Both the position numbers and the translations under genes were made by a program. This document shows, piece by piece, positions 4,175 through 63,783 of a stretch of DNA of 64,000 nt. Numbering within the stretch: the first letter of the stretch is position 1; each line of letters begins with the position of its first letter. The notes beneath the pieces are model-generated. The model was given only the letters and a program-made list of their open reading frames with translations, ran no database searches and was not told where the DNA came from. Location: positions 6,912 through 70,911 of the forward strand of contig CAZPGB010000014.1 in assembly GCA_964585945.1 (NCBI GenBank). Reading direction: 5' to 3'. The stretch is from an uncultured bacterium. GTDB taxonomy: Bacteria; Eisenbacteria; RBG-16-71-46; CAIMUX01; WJJG01.

Positions 4175-5338
4175 ATGACGAGGATGCACAACGCACCGAG
4201 CAAGGACGAGTTTCAAGCGCTCTTTCAGGACCGAGGTTGGCCGCGCCTCTCGGTTTACACCCCAACGGGCCGCACGTCGGCGGAAGCCGAAGAGAGCCGC
4301 ATCCGGTTCAAGAACCAGATCCAGGAAGCGGCCGGACGGCTGCTGGCCGGGGGCCTGCGCATATCGGAGGTGCAGTCATTCCTGGCACCCGTGCGCACGA
4401 CGATGGAGGATGCGCTCTTCTGGCAGCACCAGACCGAGGCGCTCTGCATGTTCCTTTCCCCGAACGCGCTCCGGTACTATCGATTGCCCTACCGCGTGCC
4501 CGAGGTCGTCGTTGTTTCCGGCCGCTTCCATATCAAGCCCTTGATCCCCGTCTTGAAGGACGCGGAGCGCTTCTTCCTCCTGGCCGTTGGGCTCCGCAAC
4601 GTGCGCCTTTACGAAGGCACGTCGTTTGAGCTCCGTCCGTTGCCGCTGAACGACGACCTGCCGGCGGGTGTCGAGGAGCTTCAGCCGCGCGAGGATACCG
4701 AAACCGCTCTCCAGCTCCACACGACGAAGGGCCAAGGGGCTGGCGGTATCTTCCACGGGCACGGCGAGACCAAGGACGCCGCCCGTCAGAAGGAGCGCAT
4801 CCTGCGGTACTTCCAGATGGTGGACCAAGCGGTGTCCAAGAAGGTGGCCGGGCGACAGGAGCCACTCATCCTGGCGGGCATCGAGTATCTCTTACCGATC
4901 TACGAGCAGGCCAACAGCTATCCCCGCATTCACAAACACGGGATTCGAGTGAACGCGGACTCCATAAATGAACAAGAGTTGCATCGTCGCGCCCTTGAGA
5001 TCATGAAACCCATGCGCAGACAGAGGCACCAGGCACGCATCGAACAGTATCAGCAGATGCGGCTTCGCAAGCGCACGACCTCCAAGCTGGAGGAGGTGCT
5101 GCAGGCTGCGTCCGCCGGGCGCATCGAGACGCTCTGGGCCCGAGCGGACGAATACTGCTGGGGACGCTACGATCCCGAGACCGGTCGCTTGGATACGCAC
5201 CGGCAGCCCCAGCCTCGTGACGAGGATCTGATCGACGCGGCCACAGCCGAAGCCCTGCGGACAGGCGCCGAAGTGGTGTTGTCGACCAGGGAGCGGATGC
5301 CGGCCGAAGCGACCGTCGCCGCCGTTCTGCGGTATTGA
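4175..5338 (+). CDS. Hypothetical protein with eRF1/Pelota-like (baeRF-type) features
   Basis: 387 aa. Central segment FFLLAVGLRNVRLYEG resembles the start of the eRF1/Dom34 central domain. C-terminus ...AEVVLSTRERMPAEATVAAVLRY resembles the eRF1/Pelota domain-3 terminus (...AILRY). GGIFHGHGE loop. GGAGG about 11 nt upstream. Confidence 0.5.
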   Translation: MTRMHNAPSKDEFQALFQDRGWPRLSVYTPTGRTSAEAEESRIRFKNQIQEAAGRLLAGGLRISEVQSFLAPVRTTMEDALFWQHQTEALCMFLSPNALRYYRLPYRVPEVVVVSGRFHIKPLIPVLKDAERFFLLAVGLRNVRLYEGTSFELRPLPLNDDLPAGVEELQPREDTETALQLHTTKGQGAGGIFHGHGETKDAARQKERILRYFQMVDQAVSKKVAGRQEPLILAGIEYLLPIYEQANSYPRIHKHGIRVNADSINEQELHRRALEIMKPMRRQRHQARIEQYQQMRLRKRTTSKLEEVLQAASAGRIETLWARADEYCWGRYDPETGRLDTHRQPQPRDEDLIDAATAEALRTGAEVVLSTRERMPAEATVAAVLRY

Positions 5339-11651: not shown

Positions 11652-13178
11652 ATGTCAAGGCAGACCAATCACGATCCAAAGATCGGTCGTCTGCTTGCCG
11701 CCATCGCATTGGGCGCCTTGCTGCTGGGCCTCGCGGCAAGCGGACCGGCATTGGCCGAACCGGACATGAGCGATACGAGCATCGCGGATGCGGTTGAAGA
11801 CGAGCTGGCCTACGACCAATCGGTACCGCTCAACGACATCGACGTTCGCGTCACCAAGGGCGTCGTGACATTGACCGGAAGCGTGAACAACCTGTTGGCC
11901 AAGGAACGAGCGGCACGGCTGGCACAAACTGTCAAGGGCGTGCGATCGGTGATCAACCGTATCGACGTCTCGCCCTACTGGGGCCGCATGGACTGGGAGA
12001 TCGAGCGGGACGTCGAGGACGCGATGGTGTTCGACTTGGCTACGGAGTCTTACGAGGTGGAAGCTGAGGTCATCGATCATGTCGCCTACTTGACCGGGAC
12101 GGTCGACTCGTGGCGGGAGAAGATGCTAGCTGAGAAGGTGGTCAAGGGGGTCAGAGGCGTTACGGACGTAACCAACAATCTCACCGTGAGCTATCCGGAG
12201 GAACGGCCCGATTTCGAGATGAAGGAGGAGATCGACAGCGCCCTGCGTTGGGACACACTGGTCGACGACCGATGGATCATCGTCGCGGTGAACAACGGCA
12301 AGGTCACTTTGGACGGACGGGTGGGCAGCGCTGCGGAGCGCCGACAGGCCCGCTACGACGCCTGGGTCTACGGCGTTCACTCCGTGGATACATCTGACCT
12401 CACGGTGGACCCGAATCTGCGGGACGAAGCTCAGCGCGAGAGCAAGTATGTCATCAAGTCGGAAGACGAGGTGAAGGAGGCCGTCGAGGATGCGTTGATC
12501 TATGACCCCCGCGTGCTCTCCTTCGACATCAACGTGGATGTGGTTGGGAATGTGGTGACGCTGCGGGGCGAGGTGGACAACCTCAAGGCGAAGCGCGCTG
12601 CTGCGCAGGTGGCCCGCAACACGATCGGTGTTGCTGCGGTCAAGAACAGGATCAAGGTGCGGCCAGAGACATATCTGGACGAGGACATTGCCAGAAACAT
12701 CCGCAATGCCATTGCCCGTGATCCGTATCTCGAGCGTTTCGAGATCGATGTGAGCGTCATCGATGGGACCGCGTACCTGAGCGGGACCGTCGATTCCTAC
12801 TTCGAAAAGGGTCGGGCCGAGGACGTCGCGGCGCGAGCGGGTGGCGTGACAGCGGTCAGGAACTCCCTGGATGTGGACTACCCCGGTTATTCGATCGCCT
12901 ACGACCCCTTCGTGTTCGACTACTATCCCTACGACTACGACTGGTACGACTATGTCCCGTATGCGACCTTCTACTCGGACGAGGAGATCGAGCGGGAAAT
13001 CGAGGACGAGCTCTGGTGGAGCCCCTTTGTGGACGCCGATGACGTCGAGGTGAGTGTCGAGGACGGGGTGGCAACGCTCACGGGCACGGTGGATAGCTGG
13101 TCCGAGCGATCGGATGCCACCGAGAACGCCTACGAAGGCGGGGCCGTCTGGGTCGAGAACCATCTGATGGTTGAGTAG
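11652..13178 (+). CDS. BON-domain (OsmY-like) periplasmic protein with multiple BON repeats
   Basis: Signal peptide. Repeated ...V.V.GVVTLTG.V....KE.A... units. RBS GGAAAGGAAGGA. Confidence 0.85.
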   Translation: MSRQTNHDPKIGRLLAAIALGALLLGLAASGPALAEPDMSDTSIADAVEDELAYDQSVPLNDIDVRVTKGVVTLTGSVNNLLAKERAARLAQTVKGVRSVINRIDVSPYWGRMDWEIERDVEDAMVFDLATESYEVEAEVIDHVAYLTGTVDSWREKMLAEKVVKGVRGVTDVTNNLTVSYPEERPDFEMKEEIDSALRWDTLVDDRWIIVAVNNGKVTLDGRVGSAAERRQARYDAWVYGVHSVDTSDLTVDPNLRDEAQRESKYVIKSEDEVKEAVEDALIYDPRVLSFDINVDVVGNVVTLRGEVDNLKAKRAAAQVARNTIGVAAVKNRIKVRPETYLDEDIARNIRNAIARDPYLERFEIDVSVIDGTAYLSGTVDSYFEKGRAEDVAARAGGVTAVRNSLDVDYPGYSIAYDPFVFDYYPYDYDWYDYVPYATFYSDEEIEREIEDELWWSPFVDADDVEVSVEDGVATLTGTVDSWSERSDATENAYEGGAVWVENHLMVE

Positions 13179-26571: not shown

Positions 26572-29034
26572 CTACGAGCTCCTGTTTGACGTGGACTCCG
26601 CCGCGGTGGTCACCGGCTCACCGCGACGTCCGGGCAGCTCGAACGTGATCGATTGCCCGGCCCGCAGGCGGGACTGCTCACCGCGACAGACAACCCGAAT
26701 CGCTCCCGCATCCTTATCTCGCGCGGTGATGGTAACCTCTCGTTGCGAGACGTGCACCCTCAGAGATTGCTTGCGATAGCGCATCGAGAACCTGAGCGAA
26801 TCGATGCCTTCCGGCAGTGCTGGATTGAGCCAGAGCGTGTCGCCCCGGGTTTCGATGCCCGTGTAGTTGCGCTGGACCAGGTCGACCGTGCCGGCCATGG
26901 CGCCCAAATGAATGCCCTCCGGCGTAGTCCCGCCCTGGATGTCGGCGATGTCGGCTTCCAGCGCTTCATTGAACAGCTCCCAGGCGCGGTGACGGTCGGA
27001 CCGGGCCAGGACCCACGCATGCACGACATGGCTGAGCGTCGAACCGTGCGGGGTGCGCTTCAGATAATAGTGAACATTGCGGGGAATCATCTCCGGTTCC
27101 CAGGGCAGATTGAGGCGTTCGAACATCTCCTCCAGCTCCTCGGCCGAGAAGAGGTAGAAGAGCATCAGGACGTCCGCCTGCTTCGACACCTTGTAGGCAT
27201 TGGGGGAATCCCCCTCGGCCTCCAGGATGCGATCCAAGCGCTGGATGTTCCCATAGCGCTTGCGGTAGCCTTTCCAGTCGAATTCCTTCAGGTCTCGGTA
27301 TCCCTCGAACTGGCTGATGATGCCGTCTTCATCGATGATGACGCGCAGCTTGCGGCTGATCTCGGCCCACTCCTCAATCTCGGCGTCGTCCAGCTTCAAC
27401 TTGTCGCGGATGGCGGAGCAGCACTCCTCGGGCAGAATGCCCAGGACCTCGAGCGCGCGGCAGAGCACCCAGGCCGCCATGACATTTGTGTAGGCGTTGT
27501 TGTCCAGCCCGGGCTTGTCCGAGCCAGGGAGCTTGTCATGGTATTCGTCGGGCCCCATCACTCCGCAGATCTCATACCGGTCGAGCGCCGAGTTGTACGT
27601 GGCCAGACTGGCGAAGAGCCGGGCGATCTCGAGAATCATCTCGGCGCCGGTCCAGATCAGAGATTCCCGATCGTCGGTGACCTGGTAGTGCTGCCACACG
27701 TTGTAGGCGATGGCCGCATTGACGTGCCGCTGGAGGTGGGTGTTGTCCCGGATCCAGTGCTTCGACTTGGGGTTCAGGTGCAACACCTGGCTCTCCTCGC
27801 GACCGTCGCTGCCGCTCTGCCACGGGTACATGGCCCCGCGCAGCCCTGCTGCGCGCGCCGCCGCCCGGGCTTCTTCGAGCCGCCGGTAGCGGTAGCTCAG
27901 AACGGCCCGAGTGATCTCGGGCATGCGGAGATTGAGGATCGGCACGATGAACATCTCGTCCCAGAAGATGTGCCCGCGGTAGGCCTCGCCGTGCAGGCCG
28001 CGGGCCGGCACGCCGACGTCGAGACCGACGATGTTGGGAGAGGCGGTCTGCAGCATGTGGAACATCTGCAGGTGGAGGACCATCGACGTGTGCATGGTCT
28101 GCTCTTCGTCCGACCCCCTGAGCTCCAGATCGAAGCGGTGCCACAGATGAAACCAGGCGGTGGCCTGCTCCCGAGCCAGCACGTCGAAGCGCTTCACGCG
28201 ACGCAGCTCCTTGACAGCCGCCAGGCTGCATTCCGAGATGGCGTGGTCACGAGACGTGTAGAGGGTCACCCGCTTCTCGACGACGAGCGTCTTGCCCTCC
28301 GCCACGTGTCCCTGGAAATACTGGGCCACGTAGGCTGCCTCTCCGGCAACGGTCTCGGGCCCTGAGAGGGATTGCCCGTCGACGTTCGCCCGTGTACGGG
28401 CCGCTTGAGCAATCTCGATACGGGACTGATTGGTGCGCACCCGCAGCAACATGCCGTCGTCCAGCGGCCGGGCCTCGAGGGGCTCCAGGTGCTTGCTCTC
28501 CAGCGCGCGGTAGCGCGCCACACCGTCGTTGATCACCCGACCGTCGAGCGCGGAGCGCACCTGTACCTCCCCGGACCAGTTCTCCGGGGTGAAGGCGATT
28601 TCGAGCGCGCCCACATGGGGGTTCTCCATGTGGACGATGCGCCGAGCTTCATAGCGCGTGATGCGTCCTCGGTCGTCACGGAAGCGAATCTGGCGGCGCA
28701 ACATCCCCTTGCGCAGGTCGAGGTCCTGTCGATAGGAGAGCAGCTCGACACTCTCGAAGTCGATCCACCCATCGCGCCCGATGCGAAAGGAGACCGGCAG
28801 CCAGTTGGGGAGGTTCACCAGGTCTTCGTTCTCGACGACGTGATTCTCGATCTCGGTCTGGCGGCGATTGTACCCCCCGGCCAGATAGGTGCCGGGGTAA
28901 TGGACGTCGTCGTTGCGAGACTCCTCCCCGGCGCCACGGGTCGCGAAATACCCGTTTCCCAGGGTGCAGAGGGCCTCACGCAGCTTCTCTTCCTCCGGGC
29001 GAAAGCCATCGTACGTCAGATGCCAGGTCGACAA
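26572..29034 (-). CDS. Glycoside hydrolase family 65 disaccharide phosphorylase (trehalose/kojibiose/maltose phosphorylase-like)
   Basis: About 820 aa with GH65 N-terminal, central catalytic (alpha/alpha)6 and C-terminal domains. Overlaps the upstream HAD fusion gene by 19 nt. Confidence 0.85.
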   Translation of the reverse strand: MSTWHLTYDGFRPEEEKLREALCTLGNGYFATRGAGEESRNDDVHYPGTYLAGGYNRRQTEIENHVVENEDLVNLPNWLPVSFRIGRDGWIDFESVELLSYRQDLDLRKGMLRRQIRFRDDRGRITRYEARRIVHMENPHVGALEIAFTPENWSGEVQVRSALDGRVINDGVARYRALESKHLEPLEARPLDDGMLLRVRTNQSRIEIAQAARTRANVDGQSLSGPETVAGEAAYVAQYFQGHVAEGKTLVVEKRVTLYTSRDHAISECSLAAVKELRRVKRFDVLAREQATAWFHLWHRFDLELRGSDEEQTMHTSMVLHLQMFHMLQTASPNIVGLDVGVPARGLHGEAYRGHIFWDEMFIVPILNLRMPEITRAVLSYRYRRLEEARAAARAAGLRGAMYPWQSGSDGREESQVLHLNPKSKHWIRDNTHLQRHVNAAIAYNVWQHYQVTDDRESLIWTGAEMILEIARLFASLATYNSALDRYEICGVMGPDEYHDKLPGSDKPGLDNNAYTNVMAAWVLCRALEVLGILPEECCSAIRDKLKLDDAEIEEWAEISRKLRVIIDEDGIISQFEGYRDLKEFDWKGYRKRYGNIQRLDRILEAEGDSPNAYKVSKQADVLMLFYLFSAEELEEMFERLNLPWEPEMIPRNVHYYLKRTPHGSTLSHVVHAWVLARSDRHRAWELFNEALEADIADIQGGTTPEGIHLGAMAGTVDLVQRNYTGIETRGDTLWLNPALPEGIDSLRFSMRYRKQSLRVHVSQREVTITARDKDAGAIRVVCRGEQSRLRAGQSITFELPGRRGEPVTTAAESTSNRSS

Positions 29035-30611
29035 CGCTTGGCCTCCATGAGCAGTCGTTCCAGCTTGTCCAGGTATTCACGCACGGAATCCGGGTCGTCC
29101 AAGGCGTGGGTGGCGTAGGTCCGCTCGGGCCCGCCCTTGACCGCGATCGCGACTCCGTCGTCGACCAGCATCTCAAAGACATCCTCATCGGTCACATCGT
29201 CCCCGATGTGGAGGGTGAGCGTGTGCTCGGGGTCGAGCTCCTGCACGTCGCGGATGTACTCCACGGCCTTGCCCTTGTGCCAATCCACATCGGGACCCAG
29301 GTCGAAGACTTTCCGGCCCGTCGAGAGCCTCAGATCCGGATGATCGGCCGTCACCTTGCGAACGTCTTCCGCCACCACATCGACCAGTTTCGGATCGACC
29401 TGTCGCACGTGCACGGCCAGCGAGAGGCCCTTGCGCTCGAGACTCGCTCCCGACACGCGGGCCACGACTCGGCGGAGCTGCTCTTCCGCCTGATCCAAAG
29501 ACGGCAGCGCGCCGCGGGCCTCCTCGTGGATGAAGTGCTTCGAGTCCGGCCCCTGGATCTCGAAGCCGTGGCTGCCGGCATACCAGATCTCCGCAATGCC
29601 CACGCGGGGCTTGACGTCGTCCAGGTCGCGGCCGCTGACTACCGCAGTGGGTGTGCAGCGCGCCAGGCGGGCGAGCACCGCACGTGTCGGCAGAGGTAGT
29701 TCCGCGTCCTGCGGGCGAGGGACGATGGGTGACAGCGTCCCGTCGAAGTCGAGGAAGACGGCGAGCCGTCGTTCGCCCAAAGTCTCAATGAGTTGGTCGA
29801 GGGCCTCCATCGCGTTCGGGAGATCGGCTTTGCGCCGGGGACGGTCGGCGCCATCGGGGTCTGCGAGACGCAGCTCTTCCAGGTCCTCGACCACGACATC
29901 GGCGCCGCCGCCGAGCAATTCCTCACGATTCGAATCGCGCGCCACCCCGATGACGCATCCGAAGCCGCCTTTTCGCCCTGCCGCGACGCCCGACACCGCA
30001 TCCTCGATCACAACGGCGCGCTCGGGCGGGGCCTTCAGACGCTTGGCTGCCTCCTCGAAGGTGTCGGGCTCAGGCTTCCCCGGAAGATGGAGTTTCTCGG
30101 CCTCGACGCCGTCGATCACCGCGTCGAACAGCGCGGAGACATCGGCGGCTTCGAGCAGCACCCGGGCATTCTTGCTCGAGGAGACCAGAGCCAAACGGAA
30201 GCCCCGATCACGAGCCTGCTTGAGCAGGTCCACGGAACTCTGAAAGACTTCGACACCTTCCTTGCGAATGCGCTCGCGGAACTTCTCGTTCTTGTGGTTT
30301 CCGATTCCGCAGATGGTCTCCCGGTCGGGGGGATCATCCTTTGACCCCCAGGGGAGCGAGATGCCCCGCGACTCGAGAAATGTCTTGACGCCTTCGTAGC
30401 GCGGGCGGCCATCGACGTATTTCAGATAGTCGGTTCGCAGATCAAAGGGCTCTTGCGACTGCCCGGTGCGACCTACATAGCTGGAAAGAAACTCATCAAA
30501 GACCTCCTTCCACGCTGCCGCATGCACGGTGGCCGATTGCGTGATCACACCGTCGAGGTCCGCGACGATGGCGTCGTAGGCGTCGCGTGAGATGGCTGGA
30601 TCATCGGACAT
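29016..30611 (-). CDS. Fused beta-phosphoglucomutase-like HAD domain + trehalose-phosphate-phosphatase-like HAD-IIB domain
   Basis: N-terminal ADLDGVITQS...KPEPD... (beta-PGM-type HAD-IA). C-terminal AVFLDFDGTLSPIV...GDD.TDE (T6PP/OtsB-type). Confidence 0.75.
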   Translation of the reverse strand: MSDDPAISRDAYDAIVADLDGVITQSATVHAAAWKEVFDEFLSSYVGRTGQSQEPFDLRTDYLKYVDGRPRYEGVKTFLESRGISLPWGSKDDPPDRETICGIGNHKNEKFRERIRKEGVEVFQSSVDLLKQARDRGFRLALVSSSKNARVLLEAADVSALFDAVIDGVEAEKLHLPGKPEPDTFEEAAKRLKAPPERAVVIEDAVSGVAAGRKGGFGCVIGVARDSNREELLGGGADVVVEDLEELRLADPDGADRPRRKADLPNAMEALDQLIETLGERRLAVFLDFDGTLSPIVPRPQDAELPLPTRAVLARLARCTPTAVVSGRDLDDVKPRVGIAEIWYAGSHGFEIQGPDSKHFIHEEARGALPSLDQAEEQLRRVVARVSGASLERKGLSLAVHVRQVDPKLVDVVAEDVRKVTADHPDLRLSTGRKVFDLGPDVDWHKGKAVEYIRDVQELDPEHTLTLHIGDDVTDEDVFEMLVDDGVAIAVKGGPERTYATHALDDPDSVREYLDKLERLLMEAKRCRPGI

Positions 30612-31123
30612 GAGTCGCACACCCCATTCCTGGTAGGCGGCGCGCCGACGAGCGGGCGGGGGGCTCTGAGAGTCGAGCTGCCCCCGTGCGCCCAGAGCGC
30701 GCTGCGGTGAATCGAGTTCGAAAGTCTCATTCACGCTAGGATCTGCGAACGAGGACAGCAACCGGGGTGAGCCGCCCTCACGGCTTGGGGGATCGCCCTA
30801 GGACCGAGGCCCAGCCGACGGACGCCGCTCGTTGGGGCGAAGGACTGGTCGTTTGTCGGCGGCCATGCGTGCAGAGGTCACAGTCGCGGAACCGCGCGCG
30901 CTGCCGCCGGAAGTGGGGGAGCACATGCGAACGGTGTCGGGGAAAGTCCCAATTGACGGCCGCGCCGAACTCTTGCCACGCGGGTCGGTTGTTAATGCTG
31001 TAAGTTCGGTGATGGGTGTTAAGCTCGATGACGATGTGCAAGACCCGAAGAGCTTCCCCTCCAGTTGGGTGGCGGACAACACCTCCCGAACCGAAAACGA
31101 TGCAATTGGAAGGAGGTTGGACG

Positions 31124-38790: not shown

Positions 38791-38928
38791 ATGGAGTTGC
38801 CCTTCACCCAGCATGAGTTCTTCCAGGTCTTCGCGGCATACAACGAAGCCGTCTGGCCCATGCAATGGGTGCTCTACGCACTCGCGGCGGGTGGACGCGC
38901 GGACGTGCATAGAGAGGACGACCCATGA
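38791..38928 (+). CDS. Possible 45-aa upstream ORF (MELPFTQHEFFQVFAAYNEAVWPMQWVLYALAAGG...) translationally coupled (ATGA) to the RTPR gene
   Basis: GGGAGG 13 nt upstream. Stop overlaps the RTPR ATG. Hydrophobic/aromatic peptide. No homology support. Confidence 0.3.
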   Translation: MELPFTQHEFFQVFAAYNEAVWPMQWVLYALAAGGRADVHREDDP

Positions 38929-40880
38929 TTCTCGATGTGGAGAAACAAGGAACGTTCGAGCTGAGCGAGCACTTCCTCGCCGGCTACCACGATCGGCCGG
39001 TGCCGTGGGGATTCGGCGACCTCTCGCGAGCCGCATTCCTGCGCAGCTACAGCCGGGACGGGGAGGCGTGGTGGCAGACGTGCCGGCGCGTTATCGAGGG
39101 CACCGTCACCATCCAGCGGATCCACTGCGCGGCCCACGGCCTCTCGTGGGACGAGGATGGAGCGCGCCGACAGGCCCAGGAGGCCTACGAGCGCATGTTC
39201 TCCTTCAAGTGGACCCCGCCCGGTCGCGGACTCTGGATCATGGGGACGCGCTTCATGTACGAGCACGGCGGGGCGGCCCTCAACAATTGCGGCTTTGTCT
39301 CGACCGAGACCATCGAGCGGGACTACGCCGCGCCGTTCGTCTGGCTGTTCCACATGTCGATGCTGGGCGTGGGGGTGGGCTTCGACACCCGCGGTCAAGG
39401 TCGGGTGGAAATCCGCCCGGCGACCGAGGGCGACGACGTCCACGCCGTTGCGGACAGTCGCGAAGGTTGGGCGGCGGCGCTCGAGCGGTTGCTTTCCGCG
39501 TATACCGGGCGCGGATCGCTCCCGCGCCGCTGGGACCTCGCGCACATTCGGCCGCAGGGCGCGAAGCTGGAGAGCTTTGGTGGGCACGCCGGCGGTCCCG
39601 AGCCCCTGGAGCGGATGCTGGCGACCTTGAGGGAGCTGTACGATTCGTACGCCGGCCGCACGTGCGACGCCCGCCTGATCGTGGACACCATGAACATCGT
39701 GGGGAGCTGCGTGGTCGCCGGGGGCGTGCGCCGCTCGGCCCAGATCGCGCTCGGGTCGCCGCACGACGAGCAGTTCCTCGATCTGAAAGTGGACGCGGAG
39801 AAGGTGGCGGAGTACCGGTGGGTCTCCAACAACTCCGTGCTCGCTCGCGCCGGCATGGATTACGACCAGGTCCTGCGCCGCACGATCGAGAACGGCGAGC
39901 CGGGATTCTTCTGGCTGGAGAACGCGCGCCGCAGAGGGCGCATGTCGGACCCCGTGGACGGACGGGACGAGGCGGCCCTCGGCACCAACCCGTGCGGCGA
40001 GCAGACGCTGTGGGACCGCGAGCTCTGCTGCCTGGTGGAGACCTACCCGGCGCATCACGCCTCCCGGCGCGACTACCTGCGCACGCTGGAGCTCGCCTAC
40101 GTCTACGCCAAGACGGTGACGCTGGTGCCCACCGAGGACGCGGTGACCAACGAGGTGATGGCGGCCAACCGGCGGATCGGCTGCTCCATGACGGGAATCG
40201 TGCAGGCGATCCACAAGCACGGACGCGGCGAGTTTTTCTCCTGGTGCGATGAGGGCTACGAGCATCTGAAGCATCTTGACGCGGGCTACGCGCGCTGGTG
40301 GCGTGTTCCCCTCGCGATCAAGCTGACCAGCGTCAAGCCATCCGGGACCGTCAGCCTCCTGGCGGGCGCGACGCCCGGCGTTCACTGGGCCTACGCCCCC
40401 TATTACCTCCGCCGTGTGCGCGTGCCGGAGGACCACGAATTGGCGGGGATGTGTCGGCAGGCCGGATACCAGGTCGAGCGCGACGAGTACTCCGAGAACA
40501 CGGTCGTGATCGCGTTCCCGGTGCACACAGGGGGGCAGGAGCGCAGCCGGCGCGAGGTCGCCGTGGGGGAGCAGGTGGAACTGGCCGTCCAGATGCAACG
40601 CCGCTGGTCCGACAACCAGGTGAGCTGCACGGCCACATTCGATCCACAGCGCGAAGGGAAAGCGCTGGCCGGCCTGCTCAGACAGCACGACGAGGAATTG
40701 AAAGCGGTATCGCTCCTTCCGTGGGGGGCGGAGAGTTATGCCCAGCCGCCCTATGAGGAGATCAGCGCCGAGCGCTACCGCGAGTTGACCGCGCACCTCG
40801 AGCCCTTGCGCGGCCCGATGCGTCACGAGCCGGAGCAGGAGCCTCGGTTCTGCGAAAGCGACGTGTGCCGAATCCCCTGA
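38925..40880 (+). CDS. Adenosylcobalamin-dependent ribonucleoside-triphosphate reductase (monomeric class II RNR, L. leichmannii RTPR-like)
   Basis: N-terminus aligns with RTPR (W..L.....Y.R.....E.W...V.RV.EG). LNNCGFV. TNPCGEQTL...C. C-terminal ...FCESDVCRIP thiol pair. Confidence 0.85.
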   Translation: MILDVEKQGTFELSEHFLAGYHDRPVPWGFGDLSRAAFLRSYSRDGEAWWQTCRRVIEGTVTIQRIHCAAHGLSWDEDGARRQAQEAYERMFSFKWTPPGRGLWIMGTRFMYEHGGAALNNCGFVSTETIERDYAAPFVWLFHMSMLGVGVGFDTRGQGRVEIRPATEGDDVHAVADSREGWAAALERLLSAYTGRGSLPRRWDLAHIRPQGAKLESFGGHAGGPEPLERMLATLRELYDSYAGRTCDARLIVDTMNIVGSCVVAGGVRRSAQIALGSPHDEQFLDLKVDAEKVAEYRWVSNNSVLARAGMDYDQVLRRTIENGEPGFFWLENARRRGRMSDPVDGRDEAALGTNPCGEQTLWDRELCCLVETYPAHHASRRDYLRTLELAYVYAKTVTLVPTEDAVTNEVMAANRRIGCSMTGIVQAIHKHGRGEFFSWCDEGYEHLKHLDAGYARWWRVPLAIKLTSVKPSGTVSLLAGATPGVHWAYAPYYLRRVRVPEDHELAGMCRQAGYQVERDEYSENTVVIAFPVHTGGQERSRREVAVGEQVELAVQMQRRWSDNQVSCTATFDPQREGKALAGLLRQHDEELKAVSLLPWGAESYAQPPYEEISAERYRELTAHLEPLRGPMRHEPEQEPRFCESDVCRIP

Positions 40881-40899
40881 GGTCATCCGGGAGGCCGTT

Positions 40900-44735
<3,836 letters not shown>

Positions 44736-57841: not shown

Positions 57842-60800
57842 ATGGACACCGAACCTGAAAGCCCCGGCCGGCGTATGCGGCGCATCGCGCTGCTCATCGT
57901 CTGCTTCGTCGCCCTCCTGTGTCCGGCCGGGGCCCAGTACTTCGGACGCAACAAGATCAAGTACGAAGAGTTCGATTTCGCTCGCCTGCACAGCCAACAC
58001 TTCGAGATCTTCTTCTACCCCACCGAAGAACCCCGCGCGCCCGAGATCGCGCGCATGGCCGAGCGCTGGCACGCTCGCCTGAGCCTCTTCTTCGAGCACG
58101 AATTCGAGAGCGCCCAGCCGATCATTCTGTACGCGGACCGGGCCGACTTCCGGCAAACCAACGTCCTGCCGGGGTTGATCAGCTTGGGAACGCGGGCCGT
58201 GACCGAGGGCATGAAGAACAGGGTCGTCCTCCCTCTGAGTGGCGTCCTGGGCGAGACGGATTTCGTCTTGGGCCACGAGCTGGTGCACGCCTTTCAGTTC
58301 GACATCCTGAAATCCGACCGGGAGCTTTCGTTCGCGGCCGCCAATCGGCTGCCGCTCTGGTTCGTGGAAGGCATGGCGGAGTACTTGTCCCGGGGTCGGT
58401 CCCACCCGCTGACGACCATGTGGCTTCGGGACGCGGTGCTGCGCGACGCGCTGCCGGCGCTGGACGCATCGTTTCAGGCCCGGCGTCACTCCCCCTACCG
58501 GCTCGGCCATGCCGTCTGGGGTTATGTTGCTGATCGTTGGGGCGATGACGTCGTGCGACGGCTCTTCCGATCCTCGTCACGACAGGGCTGGCGGGAGGCG
58601 TTTCGGCGCGAGTTGGGTCTGTCGCCCGACTCGCTGTCACGGGCCTGGGCCGAGGATGTCCGCGCTCGGCACGGAGCCGTGGGCCGGGACCGCGTGCCGC
58701 CCGATTCCGTAGGCCGCCCACTGCTGACCGGCGCCGGCGGCTACCATCTCTCGCCGGCCCTGAGCCCCGACGGGCGGCGGATCGCCTTCTGGTCCCAACG
58801 CGACATCTTCACGATGGACCTGTACCTGGCCGACACGCGCACCGGAAAGGTGGAGCGGAAGATCGCCAGCGCCGTGCGGGATGAGCATCTCGACGCGCTG
58901 CGCTTCGCGGATTCGGGCGGCGCCTGGTCACCGGATGGCGGGCGTTTGGCGATCGTCGCGAGCGGACACGGCGACTTCCTGATCTCCATTCTCGATTTGG
59001 CAGGCGGATCGCGTGAGACGATCGCCCTCGACTCGATCCCGGACATCGTCCACCTCGCCTGGTCTCCCGACGGCGGGAGGCTGGCGTTCTTCGGCAACGC
59101 CGGGGGAATCGGCGATCTGTACCTGTACGACCTCGAACAAGGCACGGTCGATCGTCTGACCGAAGACCGCTTCGCGGAGCTGCAGCCGGCCTGGTCCCCA
59201 ACGGGCGAGCAGATTGCCTTCATGACCGAACGGGGAAGCGACACCGACCTCGAACAACTGGACGCCGGCATCATGAAGATCGGACTGCTGGATCTCTACA
59301 GCGGGGAGATCGAGTTGATTCGCCTGCCGGATGCCACGCATCATCTCAGCCCGCAATTCGCTCCGGACGGCCGCTCGCTCTACTTCATTGCCGACCCCGA
59401 TGGCTTCAACGATCTGTACCGTCACGACCTGGCGAGCGGACAGACCCAGCGCATCACGCGGGTCGCCACCGGCATCAGCGGCCTGACCGAGCTGTCGCCG
59501 GCGCTTTCGGTGGCTGCGGATTCGGGCCTCATCGCGCTGAACCTCTTCACCGGAAGGGGCCGAGCCATCCACGTCCTGGAGCCCGACCGGGCGGGCGGCG
59601 AGACGCCGATTGCGTCGGCTGCGCCGGCGGCAAGAAGCGGTGACGGAGGCCCCGAACCGTATCCGGCCGGAGGCGAGGGGCTGGTGCACCGGCAGCTTCG
59701 GGATGAGACCGTCGGACTGCCCCCGGACACCAGCTTCGCTCGCTCGCCTTACCCTGGGCGCCTCGAGCTGCTTCGCATCGGGCAGGTGCACGTGGGCGTC
59801 GCCGCGGACCGCTACTCCACCTACCTGGGGGGCGGGATCCATCTGCTCTGGGGCGATCTGCTCGGCAACCGCAGGCTCGCCGTGGCCGCGCAGGCCAACG
59901 GCGGCCTGAGCGACATCGGGGCGCAGGTGACCTACCAACTCCTGGAGGGCCGCATCAACTGGGGCCTGTCGGCGGCGCACATTCCGTACCGATCGGTGCG
60001 CGTGGGCTACCGGCGCGACAGCACGATCGTCGGCGGCGAAACCGTTCACGGATGGCGCACCAGCCTCCTGCGCGAACGGGCGTTTCTGGAGCGCGCCGCG
60101 GTGATCGCGGAGTACCCGCTCAGCCTGAACCGGCGCGTCGAGGCCAGCCTTGGATACAGCCACATCAGCTACGATGTGGAGTCCGAAGAGGTGCTCATCG
60201 CCAACGGCGCCGTTGTCGAGTCCCGCACCCTGTCCCCGACCGCCGCCTCGCCGCTGGACCTGTTCCACAGCAGTCTGGCCTATGTCGGCGACTACTCCTT
60301 CACCGCGTTCACGTCGCCGGTTCGCGGGCGCCGGTTCCGCTTCGAGGCCGAGCCCACGCTCGGCTCCTTGCGCTATCTGTCGCTCACCGCCGATTACCGG
60401 CACTACCTGCAGTGGTATCCCGTCACCTTCGCGGTGAGGCTCCTTCATCAAGGACGTTACCTGCGTGACGCGGAAAGCGATCGGCTCAGCGCCTACTATC
60501 TCGGCTACCATACCCTGGTGCGAGGGTATGACATGAACACCGTCGACGCAGCCGAGGCCGGCCGGGACGAAGCGCAGGATGAAGCCAATGCCGTGGAGCG
60601 GTTGATCGGATCGCGCCTGGGGGTGATGAATCTGGAGGTGCGTCTGCCGGTTTTCGGCAACGATCGTTACGGATTGCTCAACATGCCCTACGTGCCCCTC
60701 ACCGCGGTGGCGTTCCTGGATGGCGGCGTGGCCTGGACGCGCGGCGATCCGCCTCTGTGGCGACTGTCCGATCGCGATCACGGCCGCATTCCCGTGTTCA

Positions 60801-60925
60801 GCACCGGTCTGGCGTTGCGCGCCAATCTTCTGGGCGCCATCGTGATGCAGGTCTACTATGCCCGTCCCTTCCAGCGGCCGGGGGAGCAAGAACAGGTCGG
60901 CTTCGTGATCGCTCCAGGATGGTAA
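57842..60925 (+). CDS. Large outer-membrane protein: gluzincin-like (HExxH...E) N-domain + TolB-like PD40 beta-propeller + Omp85/BamA-type C-terminal beta-barrel
   Basis: Signal peptide (probable start at the internal Met 57875, MRRIALLIVCFVALLCPAGA). HELVHAFQ...FVEGMAEY. At least 5 PD40-like repeats (SPDGRRIAF, SPDGGRLA, SPTGEQIAF, APDGRSLYF). C-terminus ...AFLDGGVAW...FVIAPGW resembles the Bac_surface_Ag barrel end. Confidence 0.75.
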   Translation: MDTEPESPGRRMRRIALLIVCFVALLCPAGAQYFGRNKIKYEEFDFARLHSQHFEIFFYPTEEPRAPEIARMAERWHARLSLFFEHEFESAQPIILYADRADFRQTNVLPGLISLGTRAVTEGMKNRVVLPLSGVLGETDFVLGHELVHAFQFDILKSDRELSFAAANRLPLWFVEGMAEYLSRGRSHPLTTMWLRDAVLRDALPALDASFQARRHSPYRLGHAVWGYVADRWGDDVVRRLFRSSSRQGWREAFRRELGLSPDSLSRAWAEDVRARHGAVGRDRVPPDSVGRPLLTGAGGYHLSPALSPDGRRIAFWSQRDIFTMDLYLADTRTGKVERKIASAVRDEHLDALRFADSGGAWSPDGGRLAIVASGHGDFLISILDLAGGSRETIALDSIPDIVHLAWSPDGGRLAFFGNAGGIGDLYLYDLEQGTVDRLTEDRFAELQPAWSPTGEQIAFMTERGSDTDLEQLDAGIMKIGLLDLYSGEIELIRLPDATHHLSPQFAPDGRSLYFIADPDGFNDLYRHDLASGQTQRITRVATGISGLTELSPALSVAADSGLIALNLFTGRGRAIHVLEPDRAGGETPIASAAPAARSGDGGPEPYPAGGEGLVHRQLRDETVGLPPDTSFARSPYPGRLELLRIGQVHVGVAADRYSTYLGGGIHLLWGDLLGNRRLAVAAQANGGLSDIGAQVTYQLLEGRINWGLSAAHIPYRSVRVGYRRDSTIVGGETVHGWRTSLLRERAFLERAAVIAEYPLSLNRRVEASLGYSHISYDVESEEVLIANGAVVESRTLSPTAASPLDLFHSSLAYVGDYSFTAFTSPVRGRRFRFEAEPTLGSLRYLSLTADYRHYLQWYPVTFAVRLLHQGRYLRDAESDRLSAYYLGYHTLVRGYDMNTVDAAEAGRDEAQDEANAVERLIGSRLGVMNLEVRLPVFGNDRYGLLNMPYVPLTAVAFLDGGVAWTRGDPPLWRLSDRDHGRIPVFSTGLALRANLLGAIVMQVYYARPFQRPGEQEQVGFVIAPGW

Positions 60926-60969
60926 CAGCGGCTTGCGGATAAGGGGCGGCCGCAGGACGCGTCGATCGC

Positions 60970-62565
60970 CTATGGTTGCCGGTTTCCCGAGGCTTGCGTC
61001 AGAAGCACCAAGGCGAGTGCGTAGATCCTGATGTTCTCGAGGTGGCGTGCGACGGTCACGTGCTCGTCCACCTGGTGTGCCAGCTCGGTCTCGCCCGCGC
61101 TCTCGTCCAGGGGTCCGAAGGCGACCGCGAGCGGAAAGGCCTTGGCGTAGGTCGTGCCCGGGATCGAGCGGAGCAGCGGGTCGCGCCCGGTGACCGTTTG
61201 GTAGGCCTCCTGCAGGGTCCCGATGAACTCGGGGTGGTCCTGGGGGGATACGAAGAGCGGTTCCTGGGCGCGGCCTTCCAGACCGGCGTCCACATGCAGG
61301 CCCGGCGTCGCGCCGGTATCGCGCTGGGCGACCTCGCGGAAGCGCGCGGCCACCTCGGTGACCGTCGCGCCGAAGGGAAAGCGGACGTCGATCTTGGCGC
61401 CGCCGTGGGACGGACCCAGCTCGATCAGGCCCAGGTTCACGGTCGAGTCGCCGCAGTATTCGTGGTGGCGGTCCACGCCGAAGGCCGAACCGTCGAGCAC
61501 ACTGCACCTGCGGTGCAGGTCGCGCGCGAACGCGGTCAGCGCTCCGAAGTCCCCGAGCGCATCCAAGTAGGCCAGGGCGTCCAGGATGGCGTTGCGACCC
61601 TCCTGCGGGTAAGCGCCGTGCGCTGTACGTCCGCGGAAGAGGACCTCGAGCTGGACGCGATCTGACGATGTACCGCGCCGGATCCACTCGAGCTGCGCGG
61701 CGGGTACCGCGCGCGCGAAATCGGCCGCCACCCTTGCGCAGTGCCGCTCGACCGCCTCCAGCTCGCCGGTCGCGGCCTCCAGCACCAACCGCGCCTCCTC
61801 CGGCACCATGTTGCTCCGCTTGCCGCCGGTAATCTGCACGAAGGCCGGCCGCCCGGGGGCGGGCCCGTGCGGGGGCGGCCACGACCCGGTCCAAGCCAGG
61901 GTGATGCGACCCTTCTCGGCGTTGATTACCGGAAACGCCCCGTCGGGCACGATCGTCTGATCGGCGATCTCGTCCTCGGCCTCCAGCCGATCGACGTCCG
62001 GCCAGGTGGTGGTCTCTTCCCGCGTGCCCATGAGGAGCTTGATCCGCCGGCGGGGCTGCCATTCGAGGGCCCGCAGGACATCGAGCGCGGAGAAGGCCAT
62101 GGCCGCGGGGCCCTTGTCGTCCTGGGCGCCACGACCCCAAACGGCACCCTCTGCCACCGTGCCCCCGAAGGGCGGAAAGCGCCAGGGCTCTCCGGGCGGG
62201 ACCACGTCGAGGTGTGTCGCCACAGCGAGCGAGCCGGCGGCGTCCGGGGGATGACTCGGCATCACGGCGACGGCGGCCAGATCGTCGTAGGTCCGAAAGT
62301 CGAGATCGAGCCTCTCGGCCTCGTACTCCAGAAACCGGAAGCACCGCTCGATTGCCAGCCGAAACCGCCGGCGCGCATCGGTCGACCGGCCGCCGCTGAT
62401 CGTCTCGAATCGCAGCAGGCCGGTCAGGAACGCGATGTAGGCATCAGCGCGACGGTCGACCACGCGGTCGATCCGCCGGGCGAGCGCCCGCGCCGTTCGG
62501 GAGGTCGTGCGGGAATGCGGCCGACCGGTCGCCTCGTCTGAGCCGATGTCGTGTGGGGTAGGCAT
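60970..62565 (-). CDS. M20 family metallopeptidase (dipeptidase/deacylase-like)
   Basis: HLDVVP and GAQDDKG metal-ligand motifs. Confidence 0.8.
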   Translation of the reverse strand: MPTPHDIGSDEATGRPHSRTTSRTARALARRIDRVVDRRADAYIAFLTGLLRFETISGGRSTDARRRFRLAIERCFRFLEYEAERLDLDFRTYDDLAAVAVMPSHPPDAAGSLAVATHLDVVPPGEPWRFPPFGGTVAEGAVWGRGAQDDKGPAAMAFSALDVLRALEWQPRRRIKLLMGTREETTTWPDVDRLEAEDEIADQTIVPDGAFPVINAEKGRITLAWTGSWPPPHGPAPGRPAFVQITGGKRSNMVPEEARLVLEAATGELEAVERHCARVAADFARAVPAAQLEWIRRGTSSDRVQLEVLFRGRTAHGAYPQEGRNAILDALAYLDALGDFGALTAFARDLHRRCSVLDGSAFGVDRHHEYCGDSTVNLGLIELGPSHGGAKIDVRFPFGATVTEVAARFREVAQRDTGATPGLHVDAGLEGRAQEPLFVSPQDHPEFIGTLQEAYQTVTGRDPLLRSIPGTTYAKAFPLAVAFGPLDESAGETELAHQVDEHVTVARHLENIRIYALALVLLTQASGNRQP

Positions 62566-62568
62566 GGA

Positions 62569-63582
62569 TCAGAGTTGATAGCGCTTGCGCGCCGAGCGAA
62601 CGATGTGGTCGATCAGATCGTTGTAGTCGATCTCCTTCGCCTCGGCCGCCGTCGTCATCGGACTCTCCCGCCGCAGGCCGGGCAGGCCGTTGACCTCGAT
62701 CAGGTAGGGCGTGCCGTTCTCGTGGAGCCGGATATCCGCCCGGGCGAAGTCGGGGGCCTTGACGATCCGGAAGGCGCGGTCGGCCAGGGCCAGCACCTCC
62801 TGACGTACGCTGGGGTCCAGCTCCGGGGGGCAGTGCGTCTCCAGGAACTCCTCCTTGTACTGGGAGCTCTTGCGCTCGTAGTCGAAGATGTTGTGCGAAT
62901 CGCCTTCGATGGAGTACTCGACGATCTCCAGGACATGACCGGGATACTCTTCCAGCATCGGCACGGTCAGCTCGCGACCCGGGATGAACTCCTCGACGTC
63001 GACGCCGTGCGGGTATTCTGCAAGCAGCTTGCGAATCACCTCCCGGGCCTCGTCCGCCGATTCCACCAGCGATTCGGCGCTGATGCCCTTGCTCGATCCC
63101 TCGTAGTTCGGCTTGATGAAGAGCGGGTATCCCAGGTGTTCGGGGAGCGGGTCGTCTTCGTTCATGATCAAGACGCCTGCCGGCACCCGGACGTTGTTGA
63201 CCGCGAAGACCTTGGCCATCAGCCGTTTGTCCAAGCCCACGCGGAGCAAGGCCGGTCCGCCCCCGGTGTAGGCCAAGCCCAGTACCTCGTAGATGGCGGG
63301 GTAGTAGGCTTCTCTACGGGGAATGGCGGTCCCCTCGGCCACGTTGAAGACCAACTCGGGCCGGGCGTCGATCAGGCGGTCGACGATCTCCTCAGGGGTG
63401 CCGGTGACCTCGACGGGCACGACCTCGTGTCCCAGAGAAGCGAGCGCTCCCCGCAGGAGCTCGAGATAGTCCTCGCTCATACGCTCGGCCTGGTCCTCCG
63501 ATTCCTCCTGCCGGAGATTGTGGGCCAGCGCAATGCGCAGGCTTCTGGGGCGCTCGTTCTGGCTTTCGTTCCGAGTGCTCAT
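62569..63582 (-). CDS. ATP-grasp ligase of the D-alanine--D-alanine ligase family
   Basis: Ddl-like N-terminal domain (IALAHNL...). ATP-grasp motifs (FIKPNYEGSSKGIS, ...EVNGLPGL). Start at an internal ATG. Confidence 0.8.
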   Translation of the reverse strand: MSTRNESQNERPRSLRIALAHNLRQEESEDQAERMSEDYLELLRGALASLGHEVVPVEVTGTPEEIVDRLIDARPELVFNVAEGTAIPRREAYYPAIYEVLGLAYTGGGPALLRVGLDKRLMAKVFAVNNVRVPAGVLIMNEDDPLPEHLGYPLFIKPNYEGSSKGISAESLVESADEAREVIRKLLAEYPHGVDVEEFIPGRELTVPMLEEYPGHVLEIVEYSIEGDSHNIFDYERKSSQYKEEFLETHCPPELDPSVRQEVLALADRAFRIVKAPDFARADIRLHENGTPYLIEVNGLPGLRRESPMTTAAEAKEIDYNDLIDHIVRSARKRYQL

Positions 63583-63783
63583 GTGGGTGCCTTTCGCGAA
63601 GGGGTCCATCGTTGGGCGGTGGTCCATCGCGGGTCCATCGCAGGTCCATCGCGGTCTCCACAGCGAGGATCGCATGCACGTGACCGGCGGACCATGCGTG
63701 GCGGGCACCATTGGCTTACGGGGGATTCACCCATGGGGCGCGTCGCCGCGCGGCCGGCAATCTGCGCGGCGGCGGTGCGCCGT

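Follow-up and report, generated by a model that had tools for sequence, protein, structure and literature searches.

What does an outer-membrane barrel of the Omp85 superfamily do when the POTRA domains that would precede it are replaced by a candidate zinc peptidase and a β-propeller? The question is raised by a gene at positions 57,842 to 60,925 of a 64,000-nucleotide stretch (the window) of contig CAZPGB010000014.1, from an uncultured member of the Eisenbacteria (assembly GCA_964585945.1). Omp85 proteins have a central part in the biogenesis of the outer membrane, and only a few of the roughly ten architectural subfamilies have known functions. The protein encoded here is an Omp85 barrel with a zincin and a TolB-like propeller in place of POTRA domains. 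The best explanation of its features, which we hold with slightly better than even confidence, is a single-chain outer-membrane protein in which a periplasm-facing, propeller-gated zinc peptidase is joined to the Omp85 barrel. The gene and its parts, with residue numbers of the encoded protein (amino acids, aa), are as follows.

57842-60925 (+): the whole open reading frame, 1027 aa, stop codon TAA, C-terminus ...GFVIAPGW
57842-57934 (+): Sec signal peptide, aa 1-31, with a signal-peptidase I site AGA/QY (A31/Q32) and a helix at aa 8-26 in the structural model
57935-57964 (+): N-terminal peptide of the mature protein, QYFGRNK(I/V)xY, aa 32-41, near-invariant across phyla
57971-58687 (+): gluzincin (clan MA(E)) domain, aa ~44-282, with a β-sheet subdomain, an active-site helix, a Glu helix and a helical bundle
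58274-58288 (+): HELVH, aa 145-149, containing two predicted zinc ligands (H145, H149) and the predicted general-base Glu (E146), invariant
58367-58384 (+): EGMAEY, aa 176-181 (E176-Y181), containing the predicted third zinc ligand E176 and the predicted second-shell E180, both invariant
58493-58501 (+): P218-Y219-R220, invariant, with Y219 a candidate transition-state-stabilising Tyr
58715-59578 (+): PD40/TolB-like β-propeller, six-bladed, aa 292-579, from PD40 Pfam matches and the model fold
59579-59737 (+): flexible linker rich in Pro, Gly and Ala, aa 580-632, with one short helix at 614-620
59738-60922 (+): Omp85-superfamily outer-membrane β-barrel, comprising short pre-barrel strands (aa 633-646) and the barrel itself (aa ~650-1027)
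60518-60529 (+): loop-6 VRGY, aa 893-896, an Omp85 hallmark, with R894, G895 and Y896 invariant, in the long loop 874-924 between strands 11 and 12
60713-60727 (+): FLDGG (FxDxG), aa 958-962, on strand 13 (953-965), with F958, D960 and G962 invariant
60893-60922 (+): last strand and C-terminal β-signal ...QVGFVIAPGW, with G1026 and W1027 invariant

The initial annotation, made from the letters and their translation, had proposed an Omp85 barrel fused to a TolB-like propeller and a gluzincin-like domain instead of POTRA domains, and the barrel, the five or more PD40 repeats, the HELVH and EGMAEY motifs, the ...FVIAPGW end and the coordinates of the reading frame are all present as it quoted them. 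We built an AlphaFold2 (AF2) model from a 46-sequence cross-phylum alignment of homologs (predicted local distance difference test (pLDDT) 82.6; predicted template-modelling score (pTM) 0.79); invariance below refers to this same alignment, and fold assignments to comparisons of the model with known structures. In a scan of the whole protein Pfam PD40 matches five stretches (E 1.3e-20), and Omp85 PF01103 scores 45.2 bits (cut-off 24; E 1.2e-11) over aa 757-1021; neither the POTRA nor the patatin families match the protein even at E ≤ 1. The model likewise contains no β-α-α-β-β (POTRA) unit between propeller and barrel; aa 580-650 form a disordered linker, one short helix and two short strands. 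The proposed absence of POTRA domains is thus borne out, as are the barrel, the gluzincin fold, whose metal and catalytic site is complete and conserved, and the TolB-like propeller, which has six blades.

Fold comparison places the N-terminal domain in the thermolysin-like, two-subdomain gluzincin fold. Its matches are lugdulysin (M30; 16.6, with 228 of 262 residues aligned), Grimontia hollisae collagenase or Ghcol (M9; 15.3), ERAP1 (M1; 14.0), PSA and APN (M1; 13.3), ColG (M9; 12.6), tricorn factor F3 (M1; 12.2) and thermolysin (M4; 9.0). H145, E146 and H149 lie on a modelled helix spanning residues 136-158 and E176 on the helix spanning 172-184, an arrangement of HExxH on the active-site helix and a Glu ligand on the following helix that supports membership of the gluzincins. 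A phmmer pairing sets HELVH...PLWFVEGMAEYLSRG...SPYRLGH of the target against HEYVH...VVWWSEGVAEYVSRV...RIYRWGY of the Grimontia collagenase, and H145, E146, H149, E176 and Y219 align with H492, E493, H496, E520 and Y564 of Ghcol (numbering offset checked), with E180 opposite E524. Crystallography and mutagenesis identified H492, H496 and E520 of Ghcol as zinc ligands and E493 as catalytic, and the Y564A mutant lost peptidase activity (PMC9304777). In the target family H145, E146, H149, E176, E180 and Y219 are all invariant, HExxH is found in 120 of the top 120 homologs, and such retention of the HExxH and Glu motifs lies far beyond chance occurrence. Because the catalytic set is intact and invariant, the domain most probably has zinc-peptidase activity. 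A further invariant pair, T121-E122, sits on the edge strand ahead of the active-site helix and might stand in for the GxMEN motif of M1 enzymes, as an exopeptidase of M1 type would require.

Sequence searches assign this domain less sharply. Whole-protein Pfam scores for peptidase families are weak (BSP, 23.2 bits against 23.8; M9, 21.1 against 26). With the domain scanned alone, BSP (PF04450) reaches 26.6-26.8 bits against 23.8 over profile positions 101-194 of 207 only. Across the scans Peptidase_M9 scores 21.1-23.4 bits against a gathering cut-off of 26 over positions 161-274 only. At the level of the family the peptidase signal is solid: 26 N-terminal domains give 26 matches to PF04450 and 17 to M9. 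The initial annotation had also suggested looking for Peptidase_MA alongside PD40 and the bacterial surface antigen family; the latter two (PD40 and PF01103) are significant, and Peptidase_MA_2 (PF13485) matches 17 of the 26 relatives (best 1.2e-10) and leaves the target itself unmatched at E ≤ 0.01. Searches of PDB sequences return a weak collagenase match, at E 9.5e-4 for the target's own N-terminal domain; an N-domain profile finds nothing among PDB sequences at E ≤ 1, and the N-terminal domain of a second family member likewise finds none. The likeness to the M9 collagenases (Ghcol and ColG) and to the M30 enzymes lugdulysin and hyicolysin comprises the gluzincin core, the pattern HExxH...W-x-x-E-G-x-A-E-Y-x-S-R and a downstream Tyr in Y-R-x-G. 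They differ in that the target is 11-14% identical, scores 23.4 against 26 with M9, has no activator, collagen-binding or PKD domains and is presumably tethered in the periplasm, whereas collagenases are secreted. Membership of the M9 collagenases was rejected because the score falls under the gathering cut-off and the activator domain is missing, the zincin beginning about 12 residues past the signal peptide.

For the propeller, TolB is the best match in both structure and sequence, with a PDB-sequence match at E 3e-15. The shared feature is the six-bladed PD40 propeller; the target lacks the N-terminal α/β domain of TolB and does not lie in a tol-pal operon. Its score against NCBIfam TIGR02800 (TolB) is 106.9 bits against a cut-off of 343, from profile positions 192-348 alone. 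Identification as TolB was accordingly rejected, the TolA-binding N-terminal α/β domain and a tol-pal operon both being absent here. Peptidase S9 was rejected as well, because DPPIV_N and S9 structures match the propeller part only and the C-terminus is an Omp85 barrel rather than an α/β-hydrolase. Homologs carry conflicting names, namely 'peptidase S9', 'BamA/TamA family outer membrane protein', 'PD40 domain-containing protein', 'Tol biopolymer transport system component' and 'DPP IV N-terminal domain-containing protein', of which 'peptidase S9' and 'Tol' are propeller-driven misannotations.

Scanned alone, the C-terminal region matches PF01103 with 47.8 bits (E 1.9e-12). The sequence is so divergent that a barrel profile found nothing among PDB sequences, Omp85 proteins included, at E ≤ 1, and the barrel was therefore assessed by fold comparison. 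The modelled barrel has 16 strands and superposes on BamA, TamA and Sam50, as the initial annotation had anticipated of the C-terminal region, and the barrel matches within the top 60 fold matches are BamA, TamA and Sam50 proteins, with no TpsB protein among them. Together with the PF01103 match and the VRGY and FxDxG motifs, this places the protein in the Omp85 superfamily. Among 80 genome-derived homologs FxDxG is kept in 72, and the C-terminus is GW in 65 and GF in 4. In strands 826-1009 identity is 0.82-0.94 in the polar, lumen-type register and 0.49-0.69 in the hydrophobic, lipid-facing one, a pattern consistent with a preserved Omp85 interior and a docked loop 6, so that the barrel may do more than anchor. 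Three consecutive strands at aa 706-787 (59957-60202) are 24-27 residues long and, unlike the other strands, not amphipathic; as modelled they probably reach well past the membrane plane. These strands, the lack of POTRA domains and the failure of the barrel profile to find a PDB Omp85 set the target apart from BamA, TamA and Sam50, and membership of the BamA/TamA-type insertases was rejected for the absence of POTRA domains in Pfam (E ≤ 1) and in the model.

The remaining segments are the N-terminus and the linker. In each of 40 examined homolog N-termini, all of which carry a signal peptide for signal peptidase I, a small-residue (AxA-like) cleavage site directly precedes the Q[YE] of a conserved FG[RK]NK motif, and no lipobox occurs at the cleavage site in any of the 40. 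The true start codon may be the ATG at 57875 (M12, MRRIALLIV...), which would give a more typical signal-peptide n-region than the ATG at 57842. In the peptide that follows the cleavage site F34, G35, N37, K38 and Y41 are invariant and Q32, Y33, R36 and V39 at least 90% conserved among the 46 homologs, and AF2 leaves aa 26-43 unstructured (pLDDT < 50). The TolA box is a docking element at the N-terminus of TolB, and the peptide at aa 32-41 could be a docking strand of that kind or an autoinhibitory plug. At the other end of the propeller, the linker falls below pLDDT 50 at aa 591-610 and has a mean identity of 0.30, against 0.63 for the barrel and 0.64 and 0.62 for the other two domains. The barrel is thus conserved to about the same degree as the enzyme and propeller, another sign that it may be more than an anchor.

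How widely is this architecture distributed, and does the zincin occur apart from it? A search of a 5.8-billion-protein collection returned more than 7,800 matches. The top 120 are 1004-1125 aa long and 38-64% identical to the target at E < 1e-270, with at least 97% query coverage wherever it is reported, and the closest relative among the matches listed is 64% identical. The initial annotation had called for a search in other phyla, and with one genome scanned per species at least 590 species in many phyla, most of them uncultured, carry the architecture. Carriers are found in Gemmatimonadota, Longimicrobiales, Rhodothermales, Salinivenus, Balneolaceae, Fibrobacterota, Chitinivibrionales, Zixibacteria, KSB1, Calditrichaceae, Thermoanaerobaculia and other Acidobacteriota, Eisenbacteria, Glassbacteria and some Spirochaetaceae; full-length homologs in Calditrichaceae and Rhodothermales genomes are 41-47% identical. 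An exhaustive profile search with the N-terminal domain gave 1,099 cluster representatives at E ≤ 1e-30. The zincin starts at aa ~20-45 in 150 representatives, among the matches listed. Of 148 representatives, 90 have a length of 980-1150 aa; the ...GW/GF C-terminus of the family is missing from nearly every shorter one, as it would be from truncated or frameshifted reading frames. From these start positions and lengths it follows that the zincin subtype is confined essentially to the zincin-propeller-Omp85 architecture.

This architecture has been described before. Heinz & Lithgow (2014; Front Microbiol 5:370, PMC4104836) split the Omp85/TpsB superfamily into ten subfamilies, including one named 'WD40-Omp85', noted its TolB-like propeller and speculated on a fusion resembling BamA plus BamB. 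For their WD40-like proteins, Table S3 lists a BamA/TamA barrel template at 99.7-100 confidence and TolB at 99.9-100, leaves the POTRA columns empty, and in the 'best aminopeptidase hit' column gives 1z5h, 4kxd, 4fgm, 3qnf and 4ar1 (M1/M9-type) at 98.7-99.4. The Pfam combinations in Table S2 are PF07676 × n + PF01103, with or without PF00930, and the target's combination agrees with that pattern. Homology to accessions of that survey such as H1XQ58 and D0MEQ5 has indirect support from the homologs at 41-47% identity in Calditrichaceae and Rhodothermales. It has a PD40/TolB propeller and an M1/M9-type region before an Omp85 barrel, without POTRA domains, and is a new, fairly divergent member of the described WD40-Omp85 subfamily. 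Domain order and templates (BamA/TamA barrel, TolB propeller, M1/M9-type region) are the same in both descriptions, and the host groups overlap, with Caldithrix, Rhodothermus, myxobacteria and Cloacimonas in the earlier survey and Calditrichota, Rhodothermales, Gemmatimonadota, Fibrobacterota and others here. The novelty implied by the initial annotation accordingly falls away, the subfamily having been catalogued in 2014 (PMC4104836). In the same Table S3 the best aminopeptidase-column template of D0MCT8 is tricorn protease (1k32) and that of D0MEQ5 an M1 template, so some members may form a second variant of the subfamily in which the N-terminal module differs. The 'Metallo' subfamily of that survey is PF00149 and unrelated to the zincin fusion. 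A 2024 paper paraphrases WD40-Omp85 as 'divergent WD40 and peptidase domains', and an outer-membrane proteome paper on M. xanthus holds nothing specific to the family.

No fundamental difference separates the target from WD40-Omp85 as described in 2014; the text of that survey treated only the propeller, without analysis of catalytic residues, domain coupling or the N-terminal peptide. To it we add a residue-level map of the complete invariant catalytic site, the six-bladed TolB-type geometry of the propeller, the obligate coupling of the zincin to the fusion, a far wider distribution, the lack of conserved synteny, the near-invariant N-terminal peptide, the T121-E122 pair and the long strands at 706-787. 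The architecture itself will not surprise specialists and is no new kind of system; the point of interest is function, which the mapped catalytic residues (E146, H145/H149, E176 and Y219) make directly testable. Cultured carriers include Rhodothermus, relatives of Salinivenus/Salinibacter, Fibrobacter and myxobacteria. The annotation of the family, whose database names contradict one another, is corrected here as well.

Under the explanation that we favour, the protein would be exported by Sec and cleaved by signal peptidase I between A31 and Q32, and the β-barrel assembly machinery (BAM) would insert the C-terminal 16-stranded barrel into the outer membrane. The zincin and propeller would remain in the periplasm, like the POTRA domains of BamA and TamA, hung from the barrel on a tether of about 50 residues. 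This topology is suggested because the N-terminus of Omp85 strand 1 is periplasmic and because the patatin domain of PlpD, the one fusion of an enzyme with Omp85 that has been tested by experiment, was found to be periplasmic (Hanson et al., 2024; PMC11116518). The signal peptides of the homologs, with no lipobox at the cleavage site, and the aromatic C-terminal β-signal agree with it. H145, H149 and E176 would bind zinc, E146 would activate water and Y219 would stabilise the transition state, and the propeller would most likely bind substrate or limit access to the site, in the manner of the propellers of S9 oligopeptidases and tricorn protease. Unfolded polypeptides or peptides would then be degraded or trimmed on the periplasmic face of the outer membrane, in the turnover or quality control of envelope proteins, and the barrel, with its conserved interior, may contribute beyond anchorage. 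What we observe in this scheme are the folds, as modelled, the motifs and their conservation, the signal peptide, the C-terminal β-signal and the spread of the family; we infer the topology, the peptidase activity, the part played by the propeller and the class of substrate, for which unfolded envelope proteins undergoing turnover or quality control are the simplest guess.

Several observations weigh against this explanation or leave parts of the protein outside it. The structural evidence consists of AF2 models, and our literature searches turned up the 2014 survey and papers that cite it, but no experiments on any family member. No role falls to the near-invariant peptide at aa 32-41. Over all strands the difference in conservation between lumen and lipid registers is not significant (p = 0.09), and stability of the fold could equally account for the conserved interior of the barrel. 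Finally, no neighbouring gene is conserved across phyla among 72 loci: the largest neighbourhood cluster, a generic ABC ATPase, occurs at 12 loci, and the others, at 6-9 loci each, are lineage-local.

A sharper form of the same model, which we consider unlikely though not fanciful, makes the protein a machine for the quality control of outer-membrane proteins (OMPs). The lateral seam of the POTRA-less barrel would capture stalled or misfolded β-barrels by their β-signal or edge strands and the tethered, propeller-gated zincin would degrade them, with aa 32-41 as an autoinhibitory plug or docking strand coupling the two. Such a protein would be a covalently fused analogue of BAM and BepA in Gemmatimonadota, Rhodothermales, Balneolales, Fibrobacterota, Zixibacteria, KSB1, Calditrichota and others. 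The invariant VRGY and FxDxG motifs, the conserved lumen register of strands 9-15 and the intact catalytic site all fit, and the long flexible tether would bring the barrel rim within range of the enzyme. BepA, an M48 zincin, docks on BamA for OMP quality control (PMC13478230; bioRxiv 10.64898/2026.07.01.735768). BepA resembles the target as a periplasmic zinc peptidase at an Omp85 barrel, a functional analogy with no claim of homology; it belongs to M48, has TPR repeats instead of a propeller and docks non-covalently rather than by fusion. However, the POTRA domains that deliver substrate in BamA and TamA are absent, and none of bam, surA and skp is a conserved neighbour at the 72 loci. We give still less credence to an enzyme related to Tol-Pal or peptidoglycan, in which the propeller would bind a Pal/OmpA-type lipoprotein or peptidoglycan and the zincin, anchored in the outer membrane, would cleave peptidoglycan stem peptides or the tethers between outer membrane and peptidoglycan. 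The synteny invoked for this reading is lineage-local and absent from this window, the TolA-binding N-terminal domain of TolB is missing (TIGR02800 at 106.9 against 343), and the nearest folds of the zincin are protein and peptide peptidases (M30, M9 and M1), not peptidoglycan hydrolase families.

The fusion of BamA and BamB proposed in the 2014 survey (PMC4104836) would make the protein a non-catalytic assembly factor, with the propeller as scaffold, the barrel as insertase and the zincin as a chaperone-like module. The structural proximity of the barrel to BamA, TamA and Sam50 agrees with this, yet the HExxH motif, the Glu ligand and the Tyr are invariant across phyla, which is not expected of a pseudo-enzyme, the propeller is of the six-bladed TolB type and not the eight-bladed BamB type (PMC11358297), and the POTRA domains are again missing; we regard this as very improbable. 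Lowest in our estimate, and barely credible, stands a surface-displayed or secreted peptidase that translocates itself in the manner of type V systems, or a transporter that conducts peptides. PlpD was once put forward as a type Vd autotransporter and the TpsB proteins of the Omp85 superfamily translocate substrates, but the PlpD enzyme domain proved periplasmic, and export of a pre-folded zincin and propeller of about 550 aa through a 16-stranded barrel appears energetically and sterically implausible. Type V passengers are β-helical, which the N-terminal part here is not, and the barrel matches within the top 60 lack TpsB, with the lock motifs of loop 6 intact. PlpD (type Vd) and the target share an Omp85 barrel with an N-terminal hydrolase, periplasmic in PlpD (PMC11116518), and differ in that PlpD combines a patatin lipase with one POTRA domain and forms dimers, whereas the target has a zincin and a propeller, no POTRA domain and a long disordered linker. 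Membership of the type Vd/PlpD group was rejected for want of any patatin or POTRA Pfam match in the target protein. Of the functions offered by the initial annotation, the PlpD precedent thus favours the periplasmic peptidase and makes the surface peptidase and the substrate-capturing transporter less likely.

The genomic setting says little of the function of the gene. The GC content at third codon positions is 0.83, in line with the adjoining genes, and the target is therefore a native gene. It is flanked on one side by fpg and a DUF72 gene and on the other by the following convergent pair.

60970-63711 (-): M20/M25/M40 peptidase (531 aa) and D-Ala-D-Ala-ligase-like ATP-grasp protein (380 aa), converging on the target gene

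Neither this pairing nor fpg or DUF72 is kept beside homologs elsewhere in the 72 loci compared. Inference of function from an operon, including a link with the adjacent M20 peptidase and ATP-grasp genes, was ruled out by this absence of conserved synteny. A 1138-aa open reading frame at 58928-62344 (-), antisense to the target and its neighbour, was judged an artefact of high GC and not a gene. An Rfam scan of the 64-kb window gave no matches and no rRNA.

Four other loci of the window carry features of separate interest. At 4175-5338 (+) lies a protein matching baeRF family 7 (E 9e-39) and family 3 (E 5e-38), which are bacterial archaeo-eukaryotic release-factor-like families. A 508-aa protein at 11652-13178 (+) has six BON domains (E 1e-90) and a hydrophobic, signal-peptide-like N-terminus. 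A run of DNA-metabolism genes at 38925-44735 (+) comprises a B12-dependent ribonucleotide-reductase-like protein, PolX with a PHP domain and a probable LigA (NAD-dependent ligase), the last assigned from its N-terminal sequence alone. At 26572-30761 (-) the gene for a GH65 glycoside phosphorylase (820 aa) precedes that for a HAD/trehalose-phosphatase fusion (581 aa), and the overlapping ends of the two genes suggest an operon of trehalose/maltose type.

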